A DNA stretch of 64,000 bases from Escherichia phage vB_EcoM-BECP11. Shown here in pieces: positions 46,839 to 55,706 of the stretch. Under the pieces are notes generated by a model. It searched no databases, was not told the DNA's origin, and was given only the letters and a program-made list of their open reading frames with translations. The stretch lies in the sequence record MW286157.1. One strand, given 5' to 3'. The translations under genes and the position numbers were made by a program. Position 1 is the first letter of the stretch; each line of letters begins with the position of its first letter.

Positions 46839-47300
46839 ATGATTATTAATGAAAACTCTTGGCATTATAAATTATTCAAATTGTTTAACGACGAATGGCA
46901 ACGACCTAAGACGCTATGTGCATACTTTTGGTCTATTGTTATCCCTACATTTTTCGTTTCTATTTTTGGGTGTGCTATACTCGTAGGGCTGACAATTATT
47001 TGTGCAGAAAGTTTACAGCGCTGGCTTATTTTCGGTAGTTTATGGACTCTTCTTCCATCGGCATTTATACTTGCGCTTTTGGTTGTTTTACTTATTATCG
47101 GTTCATTTGTTATTCCTGCACATTTGCGTGAAAAATATAAAGATTATAAATGGAAAAAGGATTATGCTTTACACGTAGAAAATATTGATAGGGTGTATAA
47201 AGGTTTACCTCCTATTCAACCCAAGAAATCGATTATCGTTGAATTTTTAAAAGCTCGTAAAGCTAAAGTATGTCCTGTTATTGAATATAAGGCTGAATGA
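46839..47300 (+). CDS. membrane protein
   Basis: 153 aa with about three hydrophobic helices. Confidence 0.6.
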   Translation: MIINENSWHYKLFKLFNDEWQRPKTLCAYFWSIVIPTFFVSIFGCAILVGLTIICAESLQRWLIFGSLWTLLPSAFILALLVVLLIIGSFVIPAHLREKYKDYKWKKDYALHVENIDRVYKGLPPIQPKKSIIVEFLKARKAKVCPVIEYKAE

Positions 47301-48310
47301 TGAAAACAGTAATGAAAAGCTATTTTGGTAGTCATCTTTATGGAACTTCTACTCCAGAATCTGATGTAGATTTTAAAGAAATCTTTGTTCCTCCTGCTCG
47401 CGATATTCTTATCGGAAATGTTAAAGAGCATATGAGTAAAAATACCAACAACACATCATCTAAAAACACTAAAGATGATATTGACCACGAATTGTATAGT
47501 CTTAAGTATTTCTTTAAATTAGCAGCAGATGGTGAAACTGTAGCATTGGATATGCTTCACACTCCACCTGAACTAGTGGTTAAATCTGATTTGCCTGATG
47601 TGTGGAAGTTTATTCAAGACAACCGTTCTCGTTTTTATACGACGAACATGAAATCCTATTTAGGATATGTTCGCAAGCAAGCTTCTAAATACGGTGTCAA
47701 GGGTTCTCGTTTGGCTGCATTACGCGATGTATTGAAAGTAGTTAATCAAATCCCTGACCAGTGGGTCGACTATCAAGAAGGAATCCCCGATAGACTTCGT
47801 CGTACTAAGGTAGAAGATATCAAACACAGACTCCCTGAAAACGAGTTCTGTGAATGGGTGTTCCATAATCACGAGAAAACAGGCCCGCAAACGTTCTACA
47901 CTGTGTTGGGTCGTAAATATCAGACAACACTTTCTCTTATTGAGCTTAAGCAGTCACTGAACAAATTAGATGCTGAATATGGTGAACGTGCTCGTAAAGC
48001 CGAAGCTAATGAAGGTATTGATTGGAAAGCTCTGAGTCATGCTTGTCGTGGTGGACTTCAACTATTGGAAATTTACAAAACTGGTGACTTGATTTATCCA
48101 CTCCAAGATGCTCCATTTATTCTCGACGTGAAGTTGGGTAAGCATCCATTTAAAACAGTTCAAGAGTTTTTGGAAGATGTGGTCGATCAAGTAGAAGCAG
48201 CATCTACTGAAGCTTCTAAGAACGGTATGCAGCAAAAAGTAGACATGGGTTTCTGGGATGACTTCCTTGAGAAGGTCTATCTTGAAAACCACCGAAGTTA
48301 TTATAAATGA
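47297..48310 (+). CDS. Pol-beta-superfamily nucleotidyltransferase-like protein
   Basis: 337 aa; N-terminal YFGSHLYGTSTPESDVDF fits the G-S-x9-13-D-x-D nucleotidyltransferase motif; ATGA-coupled to membrane protein gene. Confidence 0.6.
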   Translation: MMKTVMKSYFGSHLYGTSTPESDVDFKEIFVPPARDILIGNVKEHMSKNTNNTSSKNTKDDIDHELYSLKYFFKLAADGETVALDMLHTPPELVVKSDLPDVWKFIQDNRSRFYTTNMKSYLGYVRKQASKYGVKGSRLAALRDVLKVVNQIPDQWVDYQEGIPDRLRRTKVEDIKHRLPENEFCEWVFHNHEKTGPQTFYTVLGRKYQTTLSLIELKQSLNKLDAEYGERARKAEANEGIDWKALSHACRGGLQLLEIYKTGDLIYPLQDAPFILDVKLGKHPFKTVQEFLEDVVDQVEAASTEASKNGMQQKVDMGFWDDFLEKVYLENHRSYYK

Positions 48311-48312
48311 TA

Positions 48313-48340
48313 GGGAGCCTTCGGGCTCCCTTTTTTATTT
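48313..48340 (+). terminator. intrinsic terminator
   Basis: GGGAGCC-TTCG-GGCTCCC hairpin followed by TTTTTTATTT. Confidence 0.8.
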
Positions 48341-48362
48341 CAAAAATTTTTTTCGCAAAACT

Positions 48363-48392
48363 GTTTACAAGCATAAAGCTTTATGGTACTAT
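48363..48392 (+). promoter_or_regulatory. T4-type early promoter
   Basis: CGCAAAACTGTTTACA ... TATGGTACTATACAACTATC. Confidence 0.65.
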
Positions 48393-48430
48393 ACAACTAT
48401 CAAAACAAATGAGTAAATTGGAGATACAAA

Positions 48431-48631
48431 ATGACTACTTTGAATAAACGTTTCGGTAAAGCTAAATCTGGTTGTGCAGCTGAACGTCGTTATGTTTTCG
48501 CTCAGTTAGAAGATGTAGAGTATCAGATTAATCAAGTTCACATTACTGGTATCGAGCCTATGTGTGGCCTTGAAGCTCTTCGTGAAGTTCGTGACGGGTA
48601 TCGTCGTGACATCGAAGAAATGTCAAAATAA
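48431..48631 (+). CDS. small hypothetical protein
   Basis: 66 aa, SD TGGAGA, Arg encoded exclusively by CGT. Confidence 0.6.
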   Translation: MTTLNKRFGKAKSGCAAERRYVFAQLEDVEYQINQVHITGIEPMCGLEALREVRDGYRRDIEEMSK

Positions 48632-48661
48632 GTATACAAACTGATAGGACTATGTTATAGT
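48632..48661 (+). promoter_or_regulatory. candidate early promoter within inverted repeat
   Basis: GTATACA (one mismatch to GTTTAC) ... TGTTATAGT, -10 embedded in GATAGGACTA...TAGTCCTATC. Confidence 0.4.
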
Positions 48662-48688
48662 AGTCCTATCAAATCAAAGGAGAATAAA

Positions 48689-49657
48689 ATGAAAACTGTA
48701 ACTATCAATAAGGGTATCTACTTTGGCAAAGAAATCTCTGGAACTTTTGAGCTCTTAGGCGAATGGTTCCCTGATAATGCTCCGGTAGATGCGCAAGGAG
48801 ATGGTAAAGTTTTTGTTGAAATTGACGGTAAACGTCGCGGTGTTTGGGTTTACAAATCAGACATTTCATATGATGGTGTAAAAGTTGAAGAAGTTAAAGA
48901 ATCATATGAAGATATGAAAACCCGCATTAATAAAAGATTTAATGTTATGGGAATGATGACGAATGGTATTATTAACGGAAACATTCGTTCATTAATTATC
49001 TCTGGTGCGGCGGGTATTGGTAAAACGTATTCTTTAGATAAAGCTTTAAATAAAGCAAATGATATTGGATACATTGAATATAAAAGCATTAACGGTAAAA
49101 TCTCCGGTATCGGTCTTTATGAACAGCTTTGGAATAATCGTGAAGAGAATTCTGTCCTTTTGATTGATGATGTGGATGTTTTCTCTGATATGGACATTCT
49201 TAATCTTCTGAAAGCTGCTCTAGACACTGGAGAGACCCGTAAAGTCTGCTGGAGCACCGCATCTTCTTACTTAGAAGAAAAAGGCATTGAGCGTGAGTTT
49301 GAATTTAAAGGAACGATTGTTTTTATCACAAACGTTGACATTGACCGCGAATTAGACCGTGGTACTAAACTTGCTCCACATTTACAAGCATTAGTGTCCC
49401 GCTCAGTTTATTTGGATTTGGGTGTTCACACTAATGAAGAAATTATGGTCAGGGTTGAAGATGTTATTCTTTCAACTGACATGATGCAAAAGCGCGGTCT
49501 TTCTGATGAAGAAACTTATAAAGCATTATCATGGATGAAAGTCAATGTTAATCGTTTACGCAATGTTTCACTGCGTACTGCTCTTTATCTTGCTGACTTT
49601 ATTATGACCGACAAAAACGGTTGGGAAGAAATCGCTGAGGTTACTCTTCTGAAATAA
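48689..49657 (+). CDS. AAA+ type P-loop ATPase
   Basis: 322 aa; Walker A GAAGIGKT, Walker B VLLIDDVD, sensor-1-like TIVFITN. Confidence 0.7.
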   Translation: MKTVTINKGIYFGKEISGTFELLGEWFPDNAPVDAQGDGKVFVEIDGKRRGVWVYKSDISYDGVKVEEVKESYEDMKTRINKRFNVMGMMTNGIINGNIRSLIISGAAGIGKTYSLDKALNKANDIGYIEYKSINGKISGIGLYEQLWNNREENSVLLIDDVDVFSDMDILNLLKAALDTGETRKVCWSTASSYLEEKGIEREFEFKGTIVFITNVDIDRELDRGTKLAPHLQALVSRSVYLDLGVHTNEEIMVRVEDVILSTDMMQKRGLSDEETYKALSWMKVNVNRLRNVSLRTALYLADFIMTDKNGWEEIAEVTLLK

Positions 49658-50121: not shown

Positions 50122-50649
50122 ATGAACGCTAAAGATATTTTCAACCTGGTAAATTACAACGATGGTAAATTTAAATCTGAAGTTCAAAGCAAGTTCTTTA
50201 ATGATGTCTCAATCGGTGGTGAAATCACGGTTGATGGAGGACAAATTTACAAATCCCGTTGGAATTGGATCGTTATTATCGATGAGATTGGTATTGTAGA
50301 AATTTACAAGAATACGAATAAAAATCGTACATTACACTGGTCTCGTGATACTAACGAACAGTACAAAAAGGATAAAGCATCTAAATTATCTCGTGTAACT
50401 CAAGAAGATATTGAGTTCATCAAGAAAGATATTTTGATGTATGATAACTTAATTGCTGAAGAGCAAGCTGTTATTGATAAATTTGACGAGATTAAAGCTT
50501 CTCGTGAAATTCCTGATTTTATGAAAGAATCAGTAAATGAACGATACACTCTCATTTCAGAGCGTATTGAAACTTACAAAAAGCAAAGAGCTGAACGCCA
50601 GAATACTCTTCGGAAGTTTGAAGAACGGTTAAAGACGGTACTCGCATAA
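50122..50649 (+). CDS. hypothetical protein with C-terminal coiled coil
   Basis: 175 aa from ATG after SD GGAGGAA; track ORF starts inside the promoter. Confidence 0.6.
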   Translation: MNAKDIFNLVNYNDGKFKSEVQSKFFNDVSIGGEITVDGGQIYKSRWNWIVIIDEIGIVEIYKNTNKNRTLHWSRDTNEQYKKDKASKLSRVTQEDIEFIKKDILMYDNLIAEEQAVIDKFDEIKASREIPDFMKESVNERYTLISERIETYKKQRAERQNTLRKFEERLKTVLA

Positions 50650-50650
50650 C

Positions 50651-50675
50651 CGCTTTATACCAAGGATGGTATAAT
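50651..50675 (+). promoter_or_regulatory. candidate middle promoter
   Basis: CGCTTTA (MotA-box-like), 12 bp, TGGTATAAT. Confidence 0.3.
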
Positions 50676-51119: not shown

Positions 51120-52007
51120 ATGTCAGTCGTAATTAATAATGTCAATGCAGTAATTAAATCTTTAGTTAATAAAAAATTGAATGAATGGACTGTACTTCGT
51201 CGTGGAGAGCCAGATAAATTTTTTCATAGATTTAACCCAACTTTGGATTTGAATGTTATTGACAGAGATGTTCATGCTGAAATTTTAGATAAATTTAAAG
51301 TTGATATTGGATTTGGATTAGAAAAACATTTACAGCGAACAAACGGATCTGGAATGAGTTTATCTAATCGCATTGTGAAAGCCCTTAATAAAATTGGAGC
51401 ATTGTCTCGTATTAATGCAAGTGAAATTCTTCGCAATTATAATAAAGGCTATGATCTTTACGGTCGACTAATGCCGAAATTATCATTTGACCAAATGATC
51501 GCGGATTTGTGGGAAAATCAACGACGATTATTAGCATTAGGCGCTCGATTAGCTAAAGGTCTAGATAAACAAATGATTTTTAAGACCAATAATACAGAAG
51601 ACCTTAAATGCTTTAAATTTAGTATTCGCGGCGATGATTATTATATCAGAGCTCGCTCTACAGATTATGTTAATATGGGGCATCATCTCTGTTTAGCTTT
51701 TGAAGTTTTAAAAGAAGCCGGAACATTAGAATATGTGTCTGGTGCTAAATGCCCGATTGGTTCAAGTTGTATTTTAATTTATCGCCCGGATGAATCCAGT
51801 TTAACTAAATTGCCTACAAAACCTGTACCAGTTCGCAGTAATGAAAAACATTCTGAGCAAATTGATTATTTTAATAAGCAAATTGAAGAGCTGAATATTT
51901 CTATTCAACAGTATGACGATGAAATTTTCAGACTATCTGGATTGAGTAGTAAAGCTAAATCTGAGCGTGAAAAATTAATTAAAATTGTTGATTTACTTAA
52001 ATCTTAA
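51120..52007 (+). CDS. hypothetical protein with C-terminal coiled-coil tail (1 of 4)
   Basis: 295 aa from ATG after SD GAGGAAAA; ends ...FNKQIEELNISIQQYDDEIFRLSGLSSKAKSEREKLIKIVDLLKS. Confidence 0.6.
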   Translation: MSVVINNVNAVIKSLVNKKLNEWTVLRRGEPDKFFHRFNPTLDLNVIDRDVHAEILDKFKVDIGFGLEKHLQRTNGSGMSLSNRIVKALNKIGALSRINASEILRNYNKGYDLYGRLMPKLSFDQMIADLWENQRRLLALGARLAKGLDKQMIFKTNNTEDLKCFKFSIRGDDYYIRARSTDYVNMGHHLCLAFEVLKEAGTLEYVSGAKCPIGSSCILIYRPDESSLTKLPTKPVPVRSNEKHSEQIDYFNKQIEELNISIQQYDDEIFRLSGLSSKAKSEREKLIKIVDLLKS

Positions 52008-52015
52008 GGAACACT

Positions 52016-53035
52016 ATGAAAACTCGTTCTCAAATTGAAGATATGGTTCGTAATGCCAGCTATACCCGTAATGTTATGACATTTTTGTGCCAAAATAATT
52101 TAGACCCTGATAGAGTTAATAGTTCCATTCACTTTAAATATATGAATAGCAGTGAATGGTTACGTCATTTTGATAAAGCTGGATATATTACACAAATGAC
52201 TGCTCGTGAACAGCTCACCGATTTCTGTAAAACTATTGATTATAAAAATCCTCTATTTGTTCAAGGTGTTGGTCAGAGTAAGGTTGATTTATCATCTGGA
52301 TTTTTCAATCCCAATCATTATCGTATTGAATGGAGATTTATTGCTCTATTCCGTAAACAGTTAAAGCAAATTTTGTCGACAGCTAGTCGATTAAAAGGTT
52401 CTGACATTAACTTAAAGAACCTGAAATTTGATGGTTATACTCTTCAGATGGAAGTAAGACCATTAAAAGAAAATAATAGAACTGCACGAATTAGCTTTAA
52501 ACCTAATACAAAAAATTCTCTTTCAATTTGTGAATGCCTTAAATCACAGTTGACAGAAGCATTTAAGTATATGGATGTTGTTGCCGCTGTTCAGTCTAAG
52601 ATTTTACCTCGTTTTGAACGATTTAAGTTAGATACAACATCATATGAACTTGATATGATCGTTTCATTTAAATACGATTTTTTGAGAAAGGACGAAGTCC
52701 CGCAAGAGAAAAAGCAGGAAGTACAAGATAACTTAAATTTATCCAATTACTTATCAAACGATCCTAAATTTTGGATGTATAGTTCAGGTAATAATGATGC
52801 ATGGAAATTCAATAAAGTGAATTTTCTTCCTGTTGAAAATCCGAGTCTTAAACCTGTTGAAAAATGGCACGCGGATGCGATTGAGAAGTCTATCAAGGCA
52901 GTAGATGATGAACTCGTTAAAGCGACCAATGAAGTGCTAGAAGCTGAAAAGGCGTTAGAACAAGCTCAGTCAAGGGTTCAAAATCTGACAAAGCAACGTT
53001 CTAAACTGAACAATGCATTAAATGCACTGAACTAG
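52016..53035 (+). CDS. hypothetical protein with C-terminal coiled-coil tail (2 of 4)
   Basis: 339 aa; ends ...VKATNEVLEAEKALEQAQSRVQNLTKQRSKLNNALNALN. Confidence 0.6.
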   Translation: MKTRSQIEDMVRNASYTRNVMTFLCQNNLDPDRVNSSIHFKYMNSSEWLRHFDKAGYITQMTAREQLTDFCKTIDYKNPLFVQGVGQSKVDLSSGFFNPNHYRIEWRFIALFRKQLKQILSTASRLKGSDINLKNLKFDGYTLQMEVRPLKENNRTARISFKPNTKNSLSICECLKSQLTEAFKYMDVVAAVQSKILPRFERFKLDTTSYELDMIVSFKYDFLRKDEVPQEKKQEVQDNLNLSNYLSNDPKFWMYSSGNNDAWKFNKVNFLPVENPSLKPVEKWHADAIEKSIKAVDDELVKATNEVLEAEKALEQAQSRVQNLTKQRSKLNNALNALN

Positions 53036-53064
53036 TTTACTTTGCCACAAGGATGTGGTATAAT
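53035..53064 (+). promoter_or_regulatory. T4-type early promoter
   Basis: GTTTACT ... TGTGGTATAAT, overlapping the stop of the upstream gene. Confidence 0.6.
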
Positions 53065-53092
53065 GTTCTTACTTTCTACTGAGGAGATTAAT

Positions 53093-54094
53093 ATGACTCG
53101 TAACGAATATATCAAATCATTCAATAGGGTTATTGATGATAAAGTTAAACCCATGTCTAGTCAGAATGCTGTTCTTTCTATTATCAATCAATGGCTCAGC
53201 AGTATTGATGCAAGTATTGTTTCTTCCAGTAAATTTATTCATGAAGTTCGTGAAATTTCTAGCCGTGTAGATAAAGATGATATTAAGATAATCTTTAAAG
53301 GGTCTCGTCTTCTTTCATATTTAGTTAATCGGGATATTCTTGGTAATTTTGGGAAAGAAATTAAACGAACTAAAGGTGTAATAGGATACAATTGGTTCGG
53401 TGATGTTAATTCTTATCATCTTAATATCAAAGAAGACCCTAAGAATATTTTTACTCGTCGTTGGATTAGTAATTTCAGACTTTTTAAAGGACAAATTCTA
53501 AAATCAGCTTCTAAATTATGTTATGGCGATTATCGTCAAATTCATCCTTTGGCTTCTGATATGATTATCGTAAAAGAATATGAGCTTGATAAAAATAAAG
53601 TAGCTATTTTTGTGAATTATGAATTTTTTACACCAGAAGCTAACCAAAAGAATATTAATAAATTTTTCTCAATTGCTAGCACTATAACTCATCAATTAGA
53701 GACGGCTTTGGATTGTATGGAAACTGTAAAAAGTATTCATACATATCCTTTCAAAAATATTGGTGGTTGGGAAGGATATAAAATTGTAATTAGTCTTCGT
53801 GAAGTGAAATGTGCTTATTCACTAACTGATAAAGAAATTTACCAACAAAAATGCGAAGAAATTGTGAATACTCCTAAAGAAGAAACTACCCTTGAGGAAC
53901 TAATGGATAATCTTGACGATTCACTTGAACCGGTAGAAATTCGTCCAGAAGTTGTTGCACTAGAAAAAGCTTATAAAGAAGTTCTAGAAATTTCTAATAA
54001 AGCGCAGAAAGAATATGAGAAGGCTAAAAAGATTTGGGAAGAATCTGTTAATCGCTTGGATCGTCTTGAACAAGCTTTACAGTTAATTAAGTAA
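53093..54094 (+). CDS. hypothetical protein with C-terminal coiled-coil tail (3 of 4)
   Basis: 333 aa from ATG after SD GAGGAGA; ends ...ALEKAYKEVLEISNKAQKEYEKAKKIWEESVNRLDRLEQALQLIK. Confidence 0.6.
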   Translation: MTRNEYIKSFNRVIDDKVKPMSSQNAVLSIINQWLSSIDASIVSSSKFIHEVREISSRVDKDDIKIIFKGSRLLSYLVNRDILGNFGKEIKRTKGVIGYNWFGDVNSYHLNIKEDPKNIFTRRWISNFRLFKGQILKSASKLCYGDYRQIHPLASDMIIVKEYELDKNKVAIFVNYEFFTPEANQKNINKFFSIASTITHQLETALDCMETVKSIHTYPFKNIGGWEGYKIVISLREVKCAYSLTDKEIYQQKCEEIVNTPKEETTLEELMDNLDDSLEPVEIRPEVVALEKAYKEVLEISNKAQKEYEKAKKIWEESVNRLDRLEQALQLIK

Positions 54095-54145
54095 TTTAAA
54101 GCCAAGGATGGCTCGGAGTATAAATCATTAACAAGTGAGAAGAAC

Positions 54146-55075
54146 ATGAAAACTCGTAAACATTATATTGATTATTTTGACAGTCTTATTACTAAACATC
54201 GTAATTATCAGATCGGACACAGAGCAGTAATCAATAATATTCTTCGTGATTTCCTTCAATATGTTGGCCAGGAAAATCATATCTGTAAAGATACTCAAAA
54301 CGCTTATTCTCATTCGTTAGGCAATTTGCTTGAATGGTTTAAACGTTCTCGTATGTTATCTTCTACTATAGCTCGTGATAACATTAAAAACTTTATGAAG
54401 CCGAGCTTCATTAAATCTGAGACATCTATAACCGATTTGGTTCAATTTACTATTGTTAACGATGTTAAAAAGACCCATTTGGCTGATTGGTTATCTACCA
54501 TTCCTGAAACTAAATTTGCTGATAAATTTGCTTGTCAATTCAATACCCAAGTGAATATGCTTTTTAAGCATGCTCGCAAACTGTTTACCGCGGGCGATGA
54601 TCGTACAAATACAGTTCATGTTAAGGACTGGGTTATTGCTGATGAAGTAACACACAAGCCAGGTGGTTCATCAGTATTAATTAATATCCAGGTTCCTTAT
54701 TATTACTCACGTAATCTCGGCACCATGACAGCTAAAGAAATTAATAAGCACAACAAAACTATTCGTTCGTTGTCTTATAAACTCCGCATGATGTTAAAAA
54801 TTATGGACGTAGTGGAAATGTATGACGAAACCGAAGATAATGGTTCAATGTTATACAGTTCACGCATTCTAATTAAACTGAAGAACCCTAATACATATAA
54901 GACAGTTGTAAAAGAGCCTAAAGTAGAAAAGGTTGATAATCTGGGTGAAGAACGTGAATATCTCAATGCCCGTTTGACTGAAGTTGAAAAACAAATTGAA
55001 GAGCATACTAAAGTTCTTAAGGCTTTAACCGCCAAAGCAAATTGTTTACGTAATGCTATTGAGGTATTGAAATGA
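54146..55075 (+). CDS. hypothetical protein with C-terminal coiled-coil tail (4 of 4)
   Basis: 309 aa; ends ...[42 protein letters not shown]. Confidence 0.6.
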   Translation: MKTRKHYIDYFDSLITKHRNYQIGHRAVINNILRDFLQYVGQENHICKDTQNAYSHSLGNLLEWFKRSRMLSSTIARDNIKNFMKPSFIKSETSITDLVQFTIVNDVKKTHLADWLSTIPETKFADKFACQFNTQVNMLFKHARKLFTAGDDRTNTVHVKDWVIADEVTHKPGGSSVLINIQVPYYYSRNLGTMTAKEINKHNKTIRSLSYKLRMMLKIMDVVEMYDETEDNGSMLYSSRILIKLKNPNTYKTVVKEPKVEKVDNLGEEREYLNARLTEVEKQIEEHTKVLKALTAKANCLRNAIEVLK

Positions 55076-55461
55076 AAAAGCGTTTATTAGAAGACATTGC
55101 AGCTTCAAGTAATTCCAGTTTAATTAAAATTATTATGGCTGGTGAGGAAGATGATATGGAAATGCGTGGAAAGATTCACGGCTGCGACGATTTAGATTTT
55201 AAACCTCCAGCATGGGATGCTATTATGGCTATGGTTGAACGACGTGAAAGAGCTTCTAAAAACGTTCCTAATTGCCCTGAATGCGGTACTGAACAAGTTC
55301 AGTTGATTAACTGGCGTAAACCAGAGCTTGAATATAAATGCCGTCAATGTAAACATAAATTTAATAAGCATGCTCCGGAAATGGTTAAATTGCCTGACTC
55401 TACTGAGTTCTTTAAAGAACTTGTGAGTGTTCAACCAATGCCTAATAATATTTTGGATTAA
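55072..55461 (+). CDS. zinc-ribbon protein
   Basis: 129 aa; CPECG...CRQCKH four-cysteine motif; ATGA coupling. Confidence 0.55.
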
Positions 55462-55463
55462 AA

Positions 55464-55706
55464 ATGACCAAGCGTAAAGAATATATGGAGACTGCTGAAA
55501 AGGCAGTCCGTGAATTAGCAATAGCTTATTATAATGAACATGGTAAATTTCCTGATAGATACAGCGTGCTTAAATCTGCTGTAACTCGTTCATACAAAAA
55601 TATGCTATCAGAAGTAAGTGATATTATATACAAACATAAAGAACAAACGGGCCAAAGTCTTGATTACGACGAGACTTTTAAACAAGTACTAGGAATTAAG
55701 GAATAA
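55464..55706 (+). CDS. hypothetical protein
   Basis: 80 aa ORF immediately upstream of nrdC. Confidence 0.55.

Follow-up and report, generated by a model that had tools for sequence, protein, structure and literature searches.

Four adjacent genes of Escherichia phage vB_EcoM-BECP11 are very probably anciently duplicated, diverged paralogues of a single T4-like-phage protein. The account of them preferred here, with somewhat better than even confidence, is that they constitute an early, accessory anti-defence family in which variable heads would meet the targets and a conserved coiled-coil stalk would serve for oligomerization. The DNA analysed, called the window below, is the whole stretch of 64,000 nucleotides (nt) taken from sequence record MW286157.1. 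A sequence-only reading of the window had singled out four consecutive open reading frames (ORFs) of 295-339 amino acids (aa), starting at 51120, 52016, 53093 and 54146, and all four are present on the + strand in the ORF list. The 4.9 kb around this array matches 740 T4-like phage records, sharing 98.9% identity with Shigella phage ESh32 and about 92% with phage T4; judged by sequence, the source of the window is a Tequatrovirus. The + strand of the window corresponds to the minus strand of T4, and T4 annotation together with protein identities identifies the array genes as the orthologues of T4 nrdC.6, nrdC.5, nrdC.4 and nrdC.3 (Table 1).

The kinship of the four proteins becomes visible only when families rather than single sequences are compared. 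When the four window proteins were compared with one another by BLASTP, no pair reached significance (best E 0.4), and in this sense the earlier statement that they show no obvious primary-sequence similarity stands; at the level of profiles and motifs it does not. The nrdC.4 and nrdC.3 proteins fall in one PHROG, phrog_1435, proteins of the two families match collinearly in cross-phage BLAST, and local hhalign comparison of the two family alignments gave a probability of 97.4% (P 1e-11) over 214 N-terminal columns. The nrdC.5 family, represented by the deeper DUF7235 alignment, matched a merged nrdC.3 plus nrdC.4 profile with a probability of 95.7% (P 9e-9); nrdC.3, nrdC.4 and nrdC.6 are each less than 25% identical to nrdC.5. 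The profile match lies in the globular core rather than the tail, pairing residues 49-198 of nrdC.5 with residues 65-221 of nrdC.4.

The connection to nrdC.6 was made through an exhaustive search with hidden Markov models (HMMs). A combined nrdC.5, nrdC.4 and nrdC.3 profile found 21 matches in total among 1.84 billion protein representatives, and by this sequence evidence the family is confined to T4-like phages. The matches include divergent members from Klebsiella-type T4-like phages (P0203, P0206 and P0209); another, P0207, was rejected as a repetitive false positive. P0206 was found at E 4e-6 and is also collinear with the nrdC.6 HMM over nearly its full length. Once intermediates had been added to the superfamily profile, the nrdC.6 profile matched it with a probability of 95.9% (P 5e-9, 162 columns), and in a ranking by the superfamily HMM, nrdC.6 proteins from four phages come right after the members (E 2e-4 to 2e-3, with noise at 0.12 or above). 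The profile comparisons thus bear out the suggestion that the array is an old tandem family that has diverged.

Two short motifs mark the same relationship. The first, [LI][ST]xxx[AN][RS][ED]x[LI]x[ND][FY]xK, occurs in all four window proteins (LSRINASEILRNYNK, ITQMTAREQLTDFCK, LSYLVNRDILGNFGK and LSSTIARDNIKNFMK), and the second, Ax[RK]Lx(1-3)Gx(0-1)D, is likewise found in all four, collinear with the first. The nrdC.3, nrdC.4 and nrdC.5 families also have an N-terminal M(K)TRxxY in common. A NrdC.3-6 superfamily is proposed, defined by a homologous alpha/beta head (helix pair, hairpin, helix, hairpin) and by the two motifs; the head is supported by the profile comparisons and, for nrdC.5 and nrdC.6, by structural models.

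AlphaFold2 (AF2) models of nrdC.5 and nrdC.6 extend the comparison to predicted structure. The nrdC.5 model has a predicted local distance difference test score (pLDDT) of 68.6 overall and 80-94 in the core, with a low-confidence linker at residues ~223-280; the nrdC.6 model has a pLDDT of 78 and a predicted template modelling score of 0.65. Both models run through the same order of secondary-structure elements, namely a long helix, a small beta element, a helix pair, a beta-hairpin, a helix, a second beta-hairpin, the linker and a C-terminal helix, and the two sequence motifs sit on equivalent helices. When the nrdC.5 model was searched against BFVD with Foldseek, it matched nrdC.6 of phage JS10 (probability 0.99, E 9e-4), as well as uncharacterised proteins of 300-370 aa from phages Cronus, Mineola, PM2, fHe-Yen9-01 and CBH8 and from Aeromonas phage 65.2. 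The nrdC.6 model matched its own family first and then largely the same phage proteins (PM2, Mineola, Cronus and fHe-Yen9-01), with additional matches in Acinetobacter phages Acj9, Acj61 and fHyAci03, Enterobacter phage IME523 and Citrobacter phage Merlin. The models indicate that the array belongs to one diverged family that is structurally widespread among T4-like phages.

One might instead suppose that the four proteins are unrelated and that their Lys/Glu-rich helical tails arose as low-complexity sequence by convergence. In favour of this, BLASTP relates no pair within the window, three or four separate families are maintained in Pfam and PHROGs, and the similarity of the tails to Smc, EmrA, keratin, LmuB and BrxC is of the generic coiled-coil kind. 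However, the profile-profile probabilities of 96-97% fall in the N-terminal and core regions and not in the tails, the order of secondary-structure elements is common to the nrdC.5 and nrdC.6 models, the Foldseek matches are reciprocal and overlapping, and a motif at the extreme C-terminus is conserved. Common descent with divergence is the better account, and unrelated origins are very unlikely; the four unrelated folds that would have spoken against a common family did not appear in the two models.

Each of the four proteins ends in a charge-rich sequence with a heptad pattern. The last ~45-60 residues of each contain 40-48% K/E/R/D/Q and at most a single Pro or Gly. The heptad a/d score was reached by none of 1000 composition-preserving shuffles for nrdC.5 and nrdC.3, by 8 of 1000 for nrdC.6 and by 22 of 1000 for nrdC.4. 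AF2 predicts a single 58-residue helix in nrdC.5 (281-338, pLDDT 83-91) and a helix-kink-helix in nrdC.6 (242-271, 30 residues, followed by 277-294, 18 residues). A coiled coil was taken to call for hydrophobic periodicity at heptad positions a and d over at least four heptads of continuous helix, and this is what was found; the heptad-repeat, Lys/Glu-rich helix originally ascribed to each protein is supported by the heptad scores and, in nrdC.5 and nrdC.6, by the models. A C-terminal (K/R)LxxA(L/I/V)xxLK, preceded by (K/E)P(V/I)E, is conserved across all four families.

The reference sequence of T4 differs in this part of nrdC.6 (NC_000866, 9997-10894, minus strand): it has a 1-nt deletion, GAGCTG-ATATT, compared with GAGCTGAATATT here, the window equivalent being about 51890-52007. 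The rest of the T4 helix is intact in another frame, which argues for a laboratory-strain mutation or a sequencing error.

DUF7235 takes in a single member of the array. With membership in Pfam PF23882 (DUF7235) defined as a full-length HMM match above the gathering score of 30 bits, nrdC.5 is clearly a member (404.8 bits, E 3.6e-121, positions 1-339). The nrdC.6, nrdC.4 and nrdC.3 proteins gave no match to the PF23882 HMM at E<=0.1 and are thus remote relatives of DUF7235 rather than members. Beyond DUF7235, scans of Pfam, NCBIfam and PADLOC returned only noise-level matches to PHL, XerD, Vat(E), LmuB and BrxC; the PADLOC defence-component HMMs assigned none of the proteins, giving only weak matches of LmuB and BrxC to coiled-coil regions (E about 1e-3, 15 bits). 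No solved relative turned up in the PDB when it was searched by sequence with two family profiles and two single proteins. A thioredoxin identity, which would call for a thioredoxin fold or for a CxxC motif together with a Pfam thioredoxin match, was considered and rejected, as none of the four proteins matches a thioredoxin or glutaredoxin family. Homologues of nrdC.3 to nrdC.6 are commonly labelled 'thioredoxin' in GenBank (for example P0002, P0025 and P0059) without having a thioredoxin domain, a label that arises by propagation from the locus name nrdC.x.

The sequence-only reading could recall no function for this block, but there is a published function for one of the genes. T4 nrdC.5 counteracts the E. 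coli SIR2-type defence protein Dsr1 (Srikant, Guegler and Laub, eLife 2022; PMC9391042). In that study, a T4 clone with compensatory deletions no longer plated on ECOR17, and deletion of dsr1 brought plating back; cloned dsr1 guarded MG1655 against the T4 deletion mutant, and nrdC.5 supplied alone on a plasmid restored infection. The window nrdC.5 is 95% identical in amino acid sequence to T4 NrdC.5 and 98% identical in the core, and so has probably kept the anti-Dsr1 activity. The same activity cannot be assumed for nrdC.3, nrdC.4 and nrdC.6, for which an anti-defence role of some kind is rated at even chances or slightly above.

The surroundings of the array are consistent with such roles. 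Two genes positioned 0.4-1.5 kb downstream of it have been published as anti-defence factors in T4/T6: nrdC.1 (window 55464-55706) is reported to be a Septu inhibitor (bioRxiv 10.1101/2025.11.20.689424), and gp49.2, whose orthologue lies 3' of nrdC at about 56.1-56.5 kb, is reported to inhibit OLD (PMC13096335). The product of pin inhibits Lon by T4 annotation. Since nrdC.1 and gp49.2 are anti-defence genes, the whole pin-nrdC.11 stretch behaves as an anti-defence island.

Comparison with related phages shows that the genes are kept under selection while the set changes. The ratio of nonsynonymous to synonymous substitution rates relative to T4 is 0.07 for nrdC.6, 0.12 for nrdC.5, 0.31 for nrdC.4 and 0.35 for nrdC.3; this purifying selection on all four argues that they are maintained genes rather than duplicates in decay. 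The number of copies depends on the genus (four, three or one), and a check for such variation had been proposed in the sequence-only reading. Tequatrovirus has all four members, Gapriver- and Dhakavirus have nrdC.6, a nrdC.5-like gene and nrdC.4 with nrdC.3 missing, and Mosigvirus ATK47 has a nrdC.6-like gene, a nrdC.5-like gene and nrdC.3 with nrdC.4 missing. Marfavirus F48 and a Jiaodavirus have a single detectable member, which occupies the corresponding place between nrdC.11 and nrdC. Two rearranged forms were also seen: 167-kb phage contigs (P0056) carry a nrdC.5/nrdC.3 fusion ORF with nrdC.4 deleted, and Shigella phage Sf25 (P0058) has a nrdC.6 with an internal tandem duplication of 83 residues.

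In nrdC.3, variation is concentrated in the head. The protein is 62% identical to that of T4 overall, with 88% identity in the first 75 residues, 47% in the head (76-265) and 84% in the coiled coil. At the nucleotide level, identity to T4 falls to 49-69% in the head only, compared with 93-100% in the flanks, and the synonymous divergence of the head is 1.3, compared with 0.1-0.2 in neighbouring genes. The nrdC.3 alleles in phage records form discrete classes at 90-99%, 72-77% and about 60% identity. By these sequence comparisons the nrdC.3 mosaic looks like ancient head cassettes exchanged by recombination at conserved ends.

The array also contains signals for early transcription. The early promoter that had been placed inside the array at 53035 is well supported, by the sequence match, by enrichment and by conservation: the GTTTAC...TATAAT pattern has four matches in the window, all on the + strand, where 0.13 are expected, T4 has the nrdC.4 promoter in identical form, and Gaprivervirus VR25 and Dhakavirus Bp7 keep its -35 and -10 elements 5' of nrdC.4. 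It is followed by a GAGGAG Shine-Dalgarno sequence (53082-53087) and the ATG of nrdC.4. The promoter-like element 5' of nrdC.3 is similar to the early promoter that VR25 and Bp7 have before nrdC.4 and, on this sequence likeness, may be a relic or weak copy of a duplicated promoter. The CCAAGGATGG hairpin motif, searched as a 10-mer with one mismatch, is not enriched in the window (3 found, 2.2 expected), and the longer AAGGATG...TATAA module is (4 matches, 0.37 expected). This promoter-spacer module occurs in three intergenic regions, 5' of nrdC.7 (50652-50675), nrdC.4 (53035-53064) and nrdC.3 (54094-54125), and the spacers of other early promoters in the window are unrelated to it. Its recurrence suggests either that a promoter was duplicated along with a gene or that a regulatory hairpin is shared. 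The copy of the module 5' of nrdC.7 has a MotA-box-like GCTTTA 12 nt before its TATAAT.

Based on these data, the array proteins can be pictured as follows. Each would begin with a helical region that varies between members, followed by an alpha/beta head of two layers; a flexible linker would join the head to the amphipathic heptad helix conserved at the C-terminus. The genes would be transcribed early from T4 early promoters and would be dispensable in laboratory hosts. Each head would form a stoichiometric complex with its own host immune protein or variant, the nrdC.5 head providing specificity for Dsr1, and the C-terminal helix would oligomerize the protein as a coiled coil and so raise its avidity for oligomeric defence proteins. 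We infer the 'target-binding heads' of the sequence-only reading in the same way; they fit the activity of nrdC.5 against Dsr1 and the cassette-like variation in the nrdC.3 head. The combination of direct binding with coiled-coil avidity is put forward tentatively, at a little less than even likelihood.

Several considerations weigh against this picture. Functional data exist for nrdC.5 only, from PMC9391042, which does not deal with mechanism; in the searchable literature, no later paper on how nrdC.5 counters Dsr1, by direct binding or otherwise, and no function or phenotype for nrdC.3, nrdC.4 or nrdC.6 was found. The heptad predictor was home-made and crude rather than a calibrated program, and the AF2 models are monomers and as such not able to show oligomerization. 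In the T4 reference nrdC.6, the frameshift changes the final ~36 codons, so that the coiled coil is lost, without known consequence. As to descent, direct profile comparison of nrdC.6 with nrdC.5 and with nrdC.3/nrdC.4 is weak and not significant (P 0.006-0.06), so that intermediates from the exhaustive search were required, and the stronger link of nrdC.6 hinges on one bridging sequence (P0206) in addition to the profile and structure evidence. Overall model-to-model TM-scores are low (0.3-0.5), which is ascribed to the flexible linkers.

In a second explanation the four are paralogues with nrdC.5 as the only immune antagonist, the others being early host-takeover or regulatory proteins that bind other host machinery, such as RNA polymerase, given a sub-fold like that of Rpb11 or the alpha N-terminal domain. 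This narrower explanation is considered rather unlikely. In a third explanation the four paralogues form one hetero-oligomer through their common C-terminal helix and have a single function. The genes are adjacent and co-transcribed early, and (K/R)LxxA(L/I/V)xxLK with its preceding (K/E)P(V/I)E is conserved in all four families. However, plasmid nrdC.5 alone was enough to restore infection by the deletion phage on dsr1+ cells, as described in the available text of PMC9391042. In addition, related genera do without nrdC.3 or nrdC.4, some having a single member, and the T4 reference nrdC.6 has no helix. An assembly of this kind is quite improbable.

The nrdC.5 head has a modest, generic fold-level likeness to tail terminator and completion proteins. 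Alpha/beta proteins designed de novo reach equal scores, and the fold is thus read as a generic two-layer alpha/beta sandwich; as a model-based resemblance, the tail-protein likeness is a lead only. In a fourth explanation the array proteins are accessory components of the virion or of tail assembly and have tail terminator/completion proteins as relatives. Membership in that group (lambda gpU, DUF3168, SPP1 gp17-like) was judged by sequence family and location in a late structural module, and neither applies: there is no sequence relationship to the array, expression is early rather than late, and the array proteins have additional N-terminal helices, a linker and a coiled coil. A virion or tail-assembly role is very unlikely. 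The resemblance is kept as a lead because DSAD1, an inhibitor of DSR2, occupies the pocket for the tail tube protein and so mimics a phage structural protein (PMC10973363, PMC10981675). DSAD1 acts alone, inactivating a SIR2-type NADase by direct binding; nrdC.5 also counteracts a SIR2-type defence protein, and a decoy mechanism is conceivable from the fold likeness. However, DSAD1 targets DSR2 whereas nrdC.5 counters Dsr1, and the likeness rests on modest, generic fold similarity, with no homology claimed. An elaborated version would make the array a platform of decoys on stalks: exchangeable, tail-terminator-like heads would mimic the phage structural proteins sensed by SIR2-type and other sensors, nrdC.5 would be the Dsr1 decoy, the coiled coil would multimerize the proteins, and recombination at the conserved N-terminal and coiled-coil ends would swap heads, as in nrdC.3, and retarget the proteins to other defences. 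This version is judged unlikely.

Among characterized genes, the closest point of reference is T4 NrdC.5 itself (PF23882), of which 52016-53035 is the orthologue; the other three array genes have the same head fold, linker and C-terminal helix. In general character the array resembles nrdC.1 (anti-Septu), gp49.2 (anti-OLD) and the dmd/tifA/adfA anti-toxin-antitoxin island. These genes are small, early, non-essential, restricted to Straboviridae and located in hyperplastic regions, and each disarms one host defence. However, they encode single small proteins without paralogues, whereas the array presents one scaffold in four copies with a coiled-coil stalk.

Table 1. Coordinates of the array genes, their predicted parts and associated promoter elements in the window
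Feature	Position (nt)	Strand	Residues	Remarks
nrdC.6 orthologue	51120..52007	+		295 aa; most divergent paralogue; newer Pfam PF26899; phrog_2257
nrdC.6 C-terminal helix-kink-helix	51843-52001	+	242-294	AF2 model
nrdC.5 orthologue	52016..53035	+		339 aa; DUF7235/PF23882; T4 anti-Dsr1 gene
nrdC.5 alpha/beta core	52163-52681	+	~50-222	AF2 model
nrdC.5 C-terminal helix	52856-53029	+	281-338 (58 residues)	AF2 model
T4-type early promoter	53035..53064	+		GTTTAC-N18-TATAAT with extended TG
nrdC.4 orthologue	53093..54094	+		333 aa; phrog_1435
nrdC.4 C-terminal heptad helix	53948-54091	+	about 286-333	heptad test
Promoter-like element 5' of nrdC.3	54094..54125	+		ATTTAA...CCAAGGATGG...TATAAAT
nrdC.3 orthologue	54146..55075	+		309 aa; phrog_1435
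nrdC.3 hypervariable head	54371-54940	+	76-265	between conserved N-terminal 75 aa and coiled coil (266-309)

The array is flanked on its 5' side by nrdC.11, nrdC.10, nrdC.9, nrdC.8 and nrdC.7 (a membrane protein) and on its 3' side by nrdC.2 (a zinc ribbon), nrdC.1, nrdC, pin, gene 49 and nrdD. The nrdC.11 product, whose gene together with nrdC.10 spans 47297-49657, is an RlaP-like nucleotidyltransferase (RNA-repair pathway; Pfam E 2e-11); nrdC.10, which is missing from VR25, has a weak AAA/STAND-type P-loop NTPase signature. The nrdC.8 protein (50122-50649, 175 aa) ends in a K/E/R-rich helix, and the nrdC.6 HMM matches it weakly (E 0.02-0.2). This protein may be a shorter relative or may have only the coiled-coil tail in common. 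A second hypervariable spot, 55187-55481, lies directly after nrdC.3, with identity to T4 falling to 37-71% at the nucleotide level, and nrdC.2 (55072-55461) encodes 129 aa here with a CxxC...CxxC zinc ribbon, compared with 104 aa in T4.

The phenotype of nrdC.5 was already known. What is new here is that its neighbours are its paralogues, that they have a definable common scaffold and that one head is cassette-like, none of which was found stated in the searchable literature. The common scaffold turns three 'hypothetical proteins' of the reference phage T4 into counter-defence candidates. It also leads to the prediction that specificity would reside in the head, which is hypervariable in nrdC.3, with the conserved coiled coil as the common module. 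The picture of a pin-nrdC.11 anti-defence island is thereby extended, and this is relevant to the host range of therapeutic T4-like phages.

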